Shown: one piece after another, positions 1 through 6,372 of the stretch
Layout: each line of letters starts with the position of its first letter
Position numbering within the stretch: the stretch's first letter is position 1
NCBI GenBank assembly: GCA_963805495.1
Contig: CAWDUQ010000002.1
Location: 1,453,828 to 1,517,827, forward strand
DNA: 64,000 bases
Direction of reading: 5' to 3'
From: an uncultured Acidobacteriota bacterium
Lineage (GTDB): Bacteria; Acidobacteriota; Thermoanaerobaculia; UBA5066; Gp7-AA6
Program-made: the position numbers and the translations under genes
Notes under the pieces: model-generated
Databases searched by the model: none
What the model was told of the DNA's origin: nothing
What the model saw: the letters and a program-made list of their open reading frames with translations, nothing else

Positions 1-3000
1 CGATCGGCTGGGAGCTCTCGCTCGGCGCGATCAAGACCTGCCGCCACGGGACCACGACCGCGCCGTGCTACGTCGCGCCGGACGGCAGCCAGCACCTCTT
101 CATCCGGGGCCAGGGCAACGGGAAGGTCACGGGCGACGGGACCCAGTACTTCCTGAAGGGCACCGGCCCCTACGAGATGTGGGACGGCGACGGGAACCAC
201 TTCGTGTTCGACAAGCAGGCCGCGGGATTCGACGACCCGCTGACCGGCGGGTTCACCCATGACTTCGGCCGCGGCCGTGACGGCTGGTACCTCGGCTCGC
301 TCGCCGATCCTCACGGCAACGGCTACAGCGTCACCTACTGGGCGGGGTCCCACCCTCGCTGGACCTACGGCGTCTCGACGTGCAGCGCCGTCACCGCGTC
401 CTTGATGCAGATGCGCGCGCCGTCCGGCACGGGCGGATGGGTGCCGAAGGACATCCGCCTTCCCTCGGGACAGGCGGTCCACGTCGAGCGCGGCCACAAC
501 GGCTTCCTCGACGGCATGGTCCTCTCGGCGACGTTCCCCGTGTTCGCGAACGGCACCCTGACGACGCGGACCTGGACGCTCGGCTACGACACTCCTTACG
601 ACGGATACGCGCACTCCTGCGGGACGGGGCTGGTCTCCGTGAGCCTGCAGCGTCTCAAGGAACTCAGGCTTCCCTCGGATCTGACCGGCTCCCCGAAGTA
701 TCAGTTCGCCCAGGCGGGCCTGCTGACGGACCTGACACTCCCGACGGGAGCGAAGGCCGAGTACTGCTACGGAGGCTATACGTTCTTCCACGGCCGCGCC
801 GGGGCCGTCGCGGCAAACTGCCCCGGACTGCCTCCTCCCACGCAGGCGTTGACGGCGATCTCCCCGACCGCCTTCGTCTGCGGTTCCGCCGCCGCGGGAG
901 AGGAGCCCCCGATCGACGCCACGGCGACCTGCGCCGAAGACAACGAGGCCCGGTGGATGGACTCCGAGAAGGGAGTCCTGAAGCGCACGGTGACCGAGCC
1001 CTTGCGCGGCCGCGTCTCGACCACCACTTACACGCAGTACGCGTTTCCCTTCGGCGAGTCCGGGTCGGCGTCGTCGCCGGGAGAGCCCCAGACACTCACG
1101 GTCGTCGTCCTGCCGCCGACCGACCAGAACGCGGCCGGCTCCCCCGGCCGCTCGCGCGCACAGGCCACGCTTTTCCTCGCGAGCCCGAGGATCGCCCAGG
1201 CGCCCGTGGGAACCGCGCGGCCGAGCGTGCCCGGCGACCGCGTCGGGGCCGACATCGAGCAGCGGTACTTCGAGACCGACCCGAATGTCACGACGCCGGC
1301 CTCACCCGCCTGTCCCGGCACTTCCGCCGACGCGAAGTTCTGCTCGAGCCGGGCGCTCCGCACGGTCCGGCGGACCTTCGAGTACGACGACGCCGTCAAC
1401 CTGGAGGGCAACCGCCGCCTCCGGAGCGAGCGCGCGATCCACGGTCCGGGCAACTGCGCGAGCTGCCCCTATCACCTCGTCGCGTATTCCAACACCGCCG
1501 GCTCCTGGGAGGGAAATGGACGGCACTATGAGAACGAGGTCCACTCCGGCTCGCTCGGCAACGACGGGCGGACGACCTTCACCGACTGGGCGCCGGCCAA
1601 CTGGTCGACCGGTCCGGGAGCGAGCGGAGTCGTGCTGCCCAACCTCTTCATCGAGCGCCGCAGCGCCGAGGGGTCCTCGGTCCGCGACGAGTTCTTCGAC
1701 TTCGACACGGCGAGCGGGTTCCTCCGAGGGTCCTTCGTCTACGACGCGGTCCGGGACCTCGCCTTTCTTCGTTGCCGCTACGACGACGGCGCGGGCAACG
1801 TCGACAAGGAATTTTCCCGATCGTTTGCGGCGTCGAGCCCGCCGTCGCCAGCGTACTGCTCCAGCCATCATCCCGTCTTCCCTTCGTCCGTCGGCACGGA
1901 CGGCGACAGCTTCGGCAAGGACGACACGTGGCAGAACGGGGAGCTCGTCTCCTCCCGCTGGATCAACGGCTCGGTCGCAACGCCGACGTTTCCGACGCGC
2001 GGCTATGTCCGGGACGCGACCACGGGCTGGGTGACTTCCTCGAGCGACACCTCCGGCCTGACGACCCGCTACGCCTACGACGCGCTCGGCCGCGTCACCC
2101 AGGTCACGCCTCCGGCGGCCGGCGAGCTGAAGACCTGGGTCTGTTACGAAGGGCCGAACGCGACGACCGCGTACCGCGCCGCCTCGGCGCAAGCCTGCCC
2201 TGTCTCGCCCTCCAACGGGAACGCGAAAGCCTGGGAGCACTTCGACTACGACGGCCTCGGGCGGCTCGCGCGCGAGAAGGCCTTGCGCCCGGGCGCCGGA
2301 GTCTCCAAGCGATTCCATCTCTTCGACGCCGCCGGCAATGCCTACTTCCGGTCCGAGTGGGTCGCCGACGCCGCCGGCGAATCGATCACCGCCGATCTCG
2401 CAACGGCCTGCGTCTTTTCCGACGGCAACTTCGCCACGTCCCGCCCGGCTTCGGCTCCGGGAACCTACAGCCTGTGCTTCGATCCCTTCGGACGTACCCA
2501 GCAGATCGTGGGCTCGAAGCACTCGAGCCTCGCGACCGTCGACCGAAAGGACGGGTCCGCCTGGTACAGCGACACGGCCGACGCCGCGCGGACATACTGC
2601 ATCAACGCAACGTTTTCCAGCCTGCAGTCGGCGGCTTGCTCCGCAGGCGGCCTGAGCGCAACGACGCAAACCCGCAGGGACGCCTTCGGACGCACGACCA
2701 GCGTGACCGAGCCGACCGGTGACGTCACGACCTATTCCTACGACGTCAATTCGAGGCTCACCCGCGTCACCCAGGGCGCCCAATCCCGAAGTTTCAACTT
2801 CGACGCCGTGGGGATGCTGCGCGACGAGACGACGCCGGAGGGCGGGCAGGTCACTCACGACGCGATCGGCACCCTCGGTAACGTCCTTCGCGAAACGCGT
2901 CCGGGCAACCTCGTCCTGACGCGTCAGTTCGATTTCGCCGGCCGTGTCACCCGCGAGGATGCCGGAGGGTCGAAATACACCGTCCACTGCTACGACGGCG

Positions 3001-5763: not shown

Positions 5764-6372
5764 ATGTCGCTGGTGCTCGCCACCGTCACCGGTACTGGAG
5801 GGACGCTTGCAATGCTCAATTGGATTGTGTCGCTCGCCCTGGGCCTTGGACCCGGAAACATTGCGCCACCGTCGCTCACAGAGTCGCTCCGCATCCTTGG
5901 CCTGACGTCCGCCCTGGTTCTGAAGTCGCAGGCCGTTGACGAGCATCCTGTCTGGTCGCCCGACGGCAAGCACCTCGCAGTCAATGTCGATGAGACATGG
6001 TCGCAGATCGACCTCGGAGACCTGTCGCTGAAAGAGGGTACCTGGCACAACGGAGAGGGGATCGGCGTGGTCGATCCCCCGCCTCACCTCGTCCCCGTCG
6101 CCGAGTCCCAAGTACGCAGGTGGGAGAAGTCCACGACCTACGCGTCGCGACGCGTCGCAACCAAGACCGGAACCGTCGTCGAGCTCCAACAGGAGGGCCT
6201 CGGCACGCTCTTCCGGATCACCCGCAAGGATCAAAAGCCCGTCGTGCTTTGGAGAACGTCCCTCGAGAACTGCCACAGTCTCGCGCTTGCGCCCGACGAG
6301 TCACTCGTCGCATTCGTGTGCGAGCTCAACGGAGTCGTCGTGACATCACTGAAGCAGCGTGACCCCAGCTGA
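5764..6372 (+). CDS. Hypothetical protein with a TolB/PD40-like motif (WSPDGKHLA). Third gene of the toxin tip module (possible second immunity or orphan).
   Basis: Starts 6 nt after the previous stop. Ordinary amino-acid composition and intermediate GC. Its 3' end overlaps the convergent hupE-like gene by ~46 nt. Confidence 0.45.
   Translation: MSLVLATVTGTGGTLAMLNWIVSLALGLGPGNIAPPSLTESLRILGLTSALVLKSQAVDEHPVWSPDGKHLAVNVDETWSQIDLGDLSLKEGTWHNGEGIGVVDPPPHLVPVAESQVRRWEKSTTYASRRVATKTGTVVELQQEGLGTLFRITRKDQKPVVLWRTSLENCHSLALAPDESLVAFVCELNGVVVTSLKQRDPS

Follow-up and report, generated by a model that had tools for sequence, protein, structure and literature searches.

What does the giant RHS (YD-repeat) gene that enters the left edge of this DNA deliver, by which route does its product leave the cell, and which of the two small genes behind it would protect the producer? 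The stretch analysed here, called the window, comprises 64,000 nucleotides (nt) of contig CAWDUQ010000002.1 (positions 1,453,828 to 1,517,827) from an uncultured Acidobacteriota bacterium, and the whole comparison took in about 100 related loci. The answer considered likely is that an RHS polymorphic toxin locus with a Sec-exported product reaches into it with its 3' part, in a Thermoanaerobaculia-like Acidobacteriota with a high content of guanine plus cytosine (GC). The YD-repeat shell would enclose a C-terminal tip of 200 amino acids (aa), and autoproteolysis at a DPDGR motif, by analogy with solved RHS proteins, would release it. The tip would then attack an ester-linked component of the envelope, most likely a membrane lipid, from the periplasmic side, as its partners suggest. 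A 108-aa protein with three transmembrane (TM) segments would be the cognate immunity protein, acquired with the tip as one low-GC cassette, and the product of the following PD40-like gene (PD40L) would most likely be a second, periplasmic immunity-type protein, acting jointly with the TM protein or affording broader protection. Delivery is not demonstrably by a type VI secretion system (T6SS): the orthologous genes encode a cleavable signal peptide and come without PAAR or VgrG.

That the long gene encodes an RHS polymorphic toxin, as the initial annotation had it, is borne out by family models. PF05593 (RHS_repeat) matches the open reading frame (ORF) with 60.8 bits (cutoff 22), TIGR01643 with 39.7 bits, and TIGR03696 (Rhs_assc_core) matches aa 1528-1606 with 54 bits (cutoff 32.5). 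YD/RHS repeats, a core with a DPxG-type motif (here HVDPDGR) and alternative tips, the features by which an RHS/YD-repeat polymorphic toxin was recognised, are all present. At its 5' end the ORF is cut by the window edge, where its first residues (IGWELSLGAIK...) correspond to codon 113 of orthologous genes; since these genes put nt 3 of the window at that codon, the full protein would measure about 1,919 aa, and some 112 N-terminal codons, the signal peptide among them, lie outside.

The orthologous loci (L001-L010) come from metagenome-assembled genomes (MAGs) of Acidobacteriota/Thermoanaerobaculia and were collected by exact-protein look-ups and collection scans; ORFs in the comparison loci were called mechanically, and L003, L004 and L007 are frameshift-prone long-read assemblies. 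Between the window and the RHS genes of L003-L010, aa identity is 57-81% in the shell and 75-89% in the core, which is whole in these eight loci; the end-truncated cores of L001 and L002 are 82% and 62% identical to that of the window. At the border of core and tip the identity drops, in the case of L003 from 89% to 49%. In seven genomes the locus was recovered together with mutL, and all seven RHS genes begin with an N-terminal Sec signal peptide (MTKKL...LEA-QSGP) and have mutL directly upstream, in divergent orientation. Two kinds of tip alternate at this place. T1, the tip of the window, is found also in L001, L002, L003, L007, L008 and L009, T1 tips elsewhere being 45-51% identical to that of the window. 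L004, L005, L006 and L010 carry T2, an unrelated-looking, hydrolase-like tip with GHSRG and weak alpha/beta-hydrolase matches, behind which there is in every case a 3-TM protein of 126-139 aa, called C (the arrangement is seen at 8478-9532 of L004).

What kind of enzyme is the T1 tip? Its AlphaFold2 model (predicted local distance difference test, pLDDT, 89.5; predicted template modelling score, pTM, 0.89) places Ser85, Asp136 and His178, numbered as in the 208-aa query, at the canonical nucleophile-elbow, post-beta7 and post-beta8 positions. In the sequence these residues stand in GHSHGG, NDLVQ and AHSELY, and LVHGT forms the oxyanion motif. A Foldseek search of the PDB with the tip gave 34 matches at E<=1e-3, every one an alpha/beta hydrolase, headed by lipase A of Bacillus subtilis and followed by an acetyl-xylan esterase, a cutinase-like protein and thioesterases; in a profile search of PDB sequences, Burkholderia/Chromobacterium family I lipases lead (E 2.6e-6 to 6e-6). 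Modelled fold and triad thus mark the tip as a minimal alpha/beta hydrolase, of the lipase/esterase type, and by sequence profile it appears closest to bacterial true lipases. An alpha/beta-hydrolase tip of about 200 aa with Ser, Asp and His had been proposed at the outset, to be abandoned if a structural model lacked the fold and the triad; the model displays both.

The tip has 23 homologues among 5.8 billion proteins. S85, H86, G87 and G88 do not vary in the alignment of 24 homologues, where D136 and H178 reach a conservation of at least 90%. A profile extends the family to 9,858 cluster representatives at E<=1e-3, mostly stand-alone proteins of about 250-350 aa, with a minority that are C-terminal domains of long proteins. 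DUF676 and PGAP1, two families in which the initial annotation had suggested looking, matched only relatives of the tip and only below threshold, as did DUF7379, for which a literature search found nothing. In one further locus (L109, 8-382), a T1 tip upstream of a fused TM-PD40L gene reads GHSHEGN, not GHSHGGN; this Gly-to-Glu change falls at G88, invariant in both tip alignments, so that this particular tip may be inactive.

Was the tip acquired alone or in company? With a mean of 0.686 and a standard deviation of 0.026 over the window, no other 900 nt have a GC as low as those at 4901-5800 (0.584), and the composition of the single genes, also when read from GC at third codon positions (GC3; Table 1), supports the tip and the 3-TM gene as one compositionally foreign cassette. 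A fall from about 70% to about 55%, running through both downstream genes, had been described; the drop is real, its lower figure is slightly too low (tip 0.60, 3-TM gene 0.57), and PD40L is only intermediate. Likewise, the genes are closely spaced, with five rather than six bases intervening on each side, that is, between the toxin stop and the ORF at 5432 and between 5758 and 5764. Weaker secondary dips (0.61-0.62 in windows of 900 nt) lie far off, at about 42,500-43,650 and about 39,500-40,400.

Which genes usually stand behind such tips? A metagenome scan with T1 tips (an alignment of four sequences) gave 419 relatives, of which the best 80 were kept as L028-L107. In calling partner ORFs, start codons close to the stop of the toxin gene were taken, a small ORF being one of at most 260 aa, and partners were counted for the 40 T1 tips, from metagenomes and earlier loci, that are linked to an RHS core and have enough downstream sequence. 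The partner is a small ORF with at least three predicted TM segments in 24 of the 40, often overlapping the toxin stop by 4-16 nt; it is an ORF with two TM segments in two cases, a signal-peptide or lipoprotein-like ORF in ten (clear lipoproteins occur in low-GC, Bacteroidota-like contigs, L055 and L104) and something else in four. Membrane or extracytoplasmic partners make up about 90%. When the tips are clustered, each clade keeps its own partner family: a D-type family goes with the tips of L002 and L030-L035, the A/B/x117 family with those of the window, L001, L003 and L009, and four-TM families with those of L037 and L040-L046. In three of the loci (L036, 4230-5729; L055, 5158-8319; L104, 5120-6628) a second, orphan-like module of RHS core plus tip follows the T1 tip/immunity pair, which is the classic arrangement of orphan toxin cassettes.

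At the orthologous locus the gene after the T1 tip is B, the 108-aa protein, in the window, A in L001 and D in L002, with A and then B in L003 and x117 and then x105 in L009. A weak but consistent relationship links A, B and x117, which have the motif W-x(4)-VPG in common; a hidden Markov model of this TM family detected no member in L007 or L008. An A-type TM gene is retained in L004 as an apparent orphan, and C-like genes or remnants lie beyond PD40L in L008 and L009. The hydrophobic segments of B span residues 12-30, 48-66 and 81-99. B matches no Pfam or NCBIfam family above threshold, and the downstream proteins gave no SUKH or Imm Pfam matches. Among 5.8 billion proteins B has only two matches, itself and one at 68% identity, a rarity that fits a fast-evolving immunity gene. 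Because multi-TM partners are usual, because partner families co-vary with tip clades and because B shares the GC3 of the tip, the ORF at 5432-5758 is predicted with good confidence to encode the cognate immunity protein, the role for which the initial annotation had proposed it.

Where, then, would the toxin act? With about nine in ten partners being membrane or extracytoplasmic proteins, the most likely site is the envelope. The substrate might still be other than a membrane lipid: besides lipases, the fold search returned acetyl-xylan esterase, cutinase-like proteins and thioesterases, and Zhang et al. left one alpha/beta-hydrolase family of polymorphic toxins without an assigned substrate. 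The tip would then be not a phospholipase or lipase but an esterase with a non-lipid substrate in the envelope, for example the O-acetyl groups on peptidoglycan or polysaccharide or the acyl chains of lipoproteins or lipopolysaccharide. This is doubtful, though worth keeping in mind, as the best sequence-profile matches are true lipases and the mostly membrane-embedded partners point to action at the membrane.

A further question concerns PD40L. Its likelier start is the ATG at 5812, because GGAGG lies 9 nt upstream and a public gene call (P0024, 186 aa) agrees. The family has a predicted partial beta-propeller fold, signal peptides and a conserved pair of invariant cysteines. Neither PD40 repeats above threshold nor a complete six-bladed propeller, the two features by which TolB/PD40 membership was judged, were found, and no Pfam or NCBIfam family matches above threshold. 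The search of 5.8 billion proteins returned 51 homologues, and a genome scan added copies in several phyla. At the orthologous locus PD40L is always distal to the TM genes, except in L007-L009, where it is proximal to some. Its divergence from the window copy tracks the RHS shell and not the type of tip. The initial annotation had made it the co-transferred third gene of a swappable toxin-immunity cassette. Such a cassette is upheld for the tip and the 3-TM gene; PD40L drops out of it, being kept after T1 and T2 alike, following the divergence of the shell and standing alone in other phyla. Because it is present whatever the tip, PD40L is best placed, from these comparisons, outside the cassette, as a resident, tip-independent part of the locus.

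What might it do there? PD40L is probably an immunity-type protein, either a second layer against T1 or a retained broad or orphan immunity, because it is the sole gene after some tips, because it occurs fused to TM modules and because there are precedents. No other intact gene follows the T1 tip of the RHS gene in L008, and in L007 PD40L stands directly after the tip; it also comes directly after a T1-like tip in L012, where the tip belongs to a haemagglutinin-repeat (CdiA-like) array of a low-GC MAG. In L109 the one ORF after the T1 tip has a 3-TM module in place of the PD40L signal peptide, and in L108 the reading frame of a D-family TM protein continues into PD40L. In polymorphic toxin systems, immunity domains are often found fused to one another (PMC3482391). 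As for the precedents, Tsi1 of Pseudomonas aeruginosa is a periplasmic, disulfide-bonded immunity protein in the form of a partial beta-propeller (PMC3391265), and on EsxX of Staphylococcus aureus two distinct immunity families, ExiAB and ExiCD, act against one toxin (PMC12744356). About 1.5 kb downstream of the fused PD40L, L108 also holds a 35-aa fragment (2393-2497) that is 60% identical to the PD40L C-terminus and suggests a degraded second copy.

Several observations weigh against the interpretation developed so far. The tip matches no Pfam or NCBIfam family above threshold, the best being Abhydrolase_6 (E 0.084, 14 bits, cutoff 26.3). TM segments and signal peptides were called by a simple hydropathy rule and visual inspection, the signal peptide of the window gene is read from its orthologues, its own N-terminus lying outside, and in the L108 fusion the first TM segment has no obvious start codon. 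Most of the points touch PD40L: it occurs in only one of the 80 metagenome T1 loci, it is missing from L002, where a T1 tip has a TM partner, it follows T2 tips as well at the orthologous locus, and it stands by itself between def and fmt in L015, an Acidobacteriaceae MAG. It is also found alone among unrelated genes in Flavobacterium, Glaciecola, Rhodothermales and Rhodobacterales. Because it follows T2 tips and occurs alone amid housekeeping genes, PD40L could have a toxin-independent role. Downstream genes that live without rhs elsewhere had been named beforehand as evidence against the cassette: PD40L is such a gene, in distant taxa, and the 3-TM gene, with its two matches, is not.

Could PD40L be an unrelated, vertically inherited periplasmic neighbour, the system proper consisting of two genes, toxin and TM immunity? 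Its identity tracks the RHS shell and hupE and not the tip, its conservation far exceeds that of typical immunity proteins, and its stand-alone copies in Flavobacterium, Glaciecola, Acidobacteriaceae and a Rhodobacterales MAG sit in core contexts. Yet orphan immunity genes would look the same, the GC3 of PD40L (0.77) is intermediate when set against that of the host (0.89), a T1-like tip on a different scaffold, the CdiA-like array of the low-GC MAG, directly precedes PD40L, and two independent in-frame TM-PD40L fusions occupy the immunity position. The two-gene system with an unrelated neighbour is thus unlikely.

The opposite assignment, in which PD40L is the real, Tli-like periplasmic immunity protein and the 3-TM protein something else (an accessory membrane factor, say, or an orphan immunity directed at a different toxin), is quite improbable. 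Known Tle lipase effectors are neutralised by periplasmic proteins, Tsi1 offers the partial-propeller precedent, and PD40L is alone behind the T1-type tips of L008 and L012 and immediately behind that of L007; on these three loci PD40L as sole immunity was for a time the favoured solution. It was rejected on the survey of 80 loci and the co-variation of tips and partners. PD40L accompanies one T1 tip in 80, against small multi-TM ORFs after 24 of 40 RHS-linked tips; TM families change with the tip clades while PD40L stays unchanged across T1 and T2; L002 manages with a TM partner only; and the GC3 of the tip is common to B and not to PD40L.

How does such a toxin leave the cell? The initial annotation had framed the tip as a Tle-type effector and suggested a search for PAAR, VgrG or T6SS genes upstream. 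As the upstream side lies outside the window, PAAR and VgrG were looked for in the orthologues: none was found at the seven orthologous loci, where mutL is upstream in every case, the intact L008 orthologue has no PAAR match, and no T6SS-type genes occur among the neighbours scanned, up to 31 kb. Judged from these orthologues, neither an N-terminal PAAR nor a VgrG/chaperone neighbourhood, as expected of a T6SS-associated Rhs effector, is present. Of the features of Tle1-Tle4, the tip shows the GxSxG motif (GHSHG) and the Ser-Asp-His triad and not the family-model match, since the Pfam models Tle1-like (PF09994) and Tle3 (PF24322) gave nothing at E<=1; among its relatives, Tle3 matches are sub-threshold or marginal, and a distant one, P0009 (32 bits), is the only one past the cutoff. 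Because there is no Tle Pfam match and because the orthologues have a Sec signal peptide, mutL as neighbour and no PAAR or VgrG, the tip is not shown to be a T6SS Tle effector, and the locus is apparently T6SS-independent. Sec-dependent RHS toxins are a recognised separate class (PMC3482391). A Tle-type phospholipase delivered by a T6SS, to which a GxSxG hydrolase on an RHS carrier and the P0009 match might point, is very improbable in the face of all this, and the Sec-exported toxin remains the preferred reading.

One insertion in the shell of this Sec-exported protein deserves mention. Two tandem repeats of about 60 aa each, with paired cysteines (FADVSCSDP...RAQMSVFLVKGY and FQDVSCSGP...EWEMLVWLARA), resemble the S-layer homology (SLH) domain and are kept in the orthologues L004 and L009. 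The Pfam SLH model stays below threshold (18.6 bits, cutoff 20.8; E 0.0019), so that the likeness is a resemblance only; as a speculation, such repeats could tether the toxin to the cell surface.

Table 1. Features at the left end of the window, with their base composition and the basis of each assignment.
Feature	Position (nt)	Strand	GC	GC3	Basis or remark
RHS/YD-repeat gene, 3' end	1-5426	+			Frame without stop codon from nt 3; stop at 5424-5426
RHS/YD-repeat shell	1-4562	+	0.69	0.89	RHS_repeat and YD_repeat_2x matches; orthologue identity
Two tandem SLH-like repeats inserted in shell	3936-4292 (aa 1312-1430)	+			Read in translation
RHS-associated core, ending in cleavage-type motif HVDPDGR	4563-4826	+			TIGR03696; motif read in translation
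Low-GC island	4800-6000				Core of the dip is tip plus 3-TM gene; PD40L intermediate
C-terminal toxin tip T1, minimal alpha/beta hydrolase (modelled)	4827-5426	+	0.60	0.70	AlphaFold2, Foldseek, PDB profile, triad, GC3
3-TM protein B, 108 aa, predicted cognate immunity	5432-5758	+	0.57	0.71	TM segments, spacing, GC3, partner survey
PD40-like gene (PD40L)	5764-6372	+	0.63	0.77	202 aa from 5764, or likelier 186 aa from ATG 5812
hupE, convergent neighbour			0.70	0.89	

The surroundings of the toxin gene are of a quieter kind. The orthologous loci begin with mutL (divergent) and RHS; one to three small genes come next, in many cases with a phd-PIN pair after them, and then hupE, an amidohydrolase gene and ppsA, for phosphoenolpyruvate (PEP) synthase, the last three on the opposite strand from RHS; the right flank of the window matches this order, and the neighbours are housekeeping genes. 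The phd/yefM-PIN toxin-antitoxin pair (VapBC-type) lies between PD40L and hupE in L004 (10648-11258), L007, L009 and L108. It is absent from the window, where the stops of PD40L (6372) and hupE (6326) overlap convergently by 47 nt. A scan of 4600-6700 for promoters and terminators gave nothing above chance. In L001 (4492-8472) the PEP synthase measures 1,326 aa and has a weak LAGLIDADG match, and for these reasons probably carries an intein; one in the PEP synthase of the window (9172-11463) was ruled out by a colinear alignment of 764 aa with L001 that shows no insertion. In the array of L012 (1-5400), every haemagglutinin-repeat (CdiA-like) toxin module has a small gene of its own behind it, and the gene content makes the label of this entry, 'Rickettsia typhi', look doubtful.

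How much of this is new? That RHS toxins may carry hydrolase tips and have immunity genes beside them is textbook matter, and T6SS lipases with periplasmic Tli proteins are well studied. The locus brings together a family of hydrolase tips and families of 3-TM partners that had no names before, along with an uncharacterised family of partial propellers, and neither the 3-TM family nor the PD40L family appears to have been described before as an immunity family. Tips of the Tox-ABhydrolase-2 and -3 types on classical polymorphic toxins were catalogued in 2012 by Zhang et al. (PMC3482391), and the general plan is the same: a signal peptide, RHS repeats and core, a variable hydrolase tip, downstream immunity and alternative tips at one locus. 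Those tips, compared by description, pair with soluble SUKH, Imm66 and Imm69 proteins, whereas the tips here are accompanied by small polytopic membrane proteins, by lipoproteins or by a secreted partial propeller.

With the Tle1-Tle4/Tli systems the locus shares a GxSxG Ser-Asp-His hydrolase as antibacterial toxin of the envelope and an extracytoplasmic immunity, here predicted. It differs in that the tip matches neither Tle1 nor Tle3 in Pfam, that VgrG, PAAR and Hcp are missing from the context and that the carrier is Sec-exported, and its main partner is an integral membrane protein, unlike Tli, a soluble lipoprotein. In the Tse1-Tsi1 pair (PMC3391265), the fold type of Tsi1 is the one predicted for PD40L. 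EsxX (PMC12744356) resembles the present toxin in facing two unrelated immunity families, one of them a polytopic membrane protein that also occurs as an orphan gene, the idea of two immunities being, for the present locus, a prediction. EsxX differs in being a pore-type LXG toxin of a type VII secretion system in a Gram-positive bacterium, with a cytoplasmic second immunity, while both candidates here are envelope proteins. Among minimal lipases, LipA of B. subtilis is closest in fold and the family I.2 lipases of Burkholderia and Chromobacterium are closest in profile, and all have the pattern HG...GHSxGG...D...H in common; identity is about 15-18%, and the tip is encapsulated by an RHS shell, unlike these free secreted enzymes.

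Why should such a locus matter? It presents a lipase-type toxin whose usual candidate antidote is a small polytopic membrane protein and not a soluble periplasmic inhibitor, and an antidote in the membrane constrains where and how the toxin acts. It also brings to light an uncharacterised family of secreted partial propellers that behaves like a resident or orphan immunity gene, sometimes fused to a membrane module. Finally, it shows a Sec-dependent, apparently T6SS-independent RHS locus kept beside mutL in Thermoanaerobaculia-like Acidobacteriota, a poorly studied group of soil and sediment.

A bolder proposal, tentative and by no means the expected outcome, is that immunity at this locus is bipartite: a tip-specific, fast-evolving 3-TM protein of the inner membrane and a conserved secreted propeller would work together at the periplasmic face and would sometimes be fused into one protein. 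If this were true, the propeller would be the broad-spectrum part, serving also as an orphan immunity gene in several phyla, and an RHS protein of Acidobacteriota, exported by Sec and independent of any T6SS, would be the carrier, perhaps anchored to the cell surface through its SLH-like repeats.

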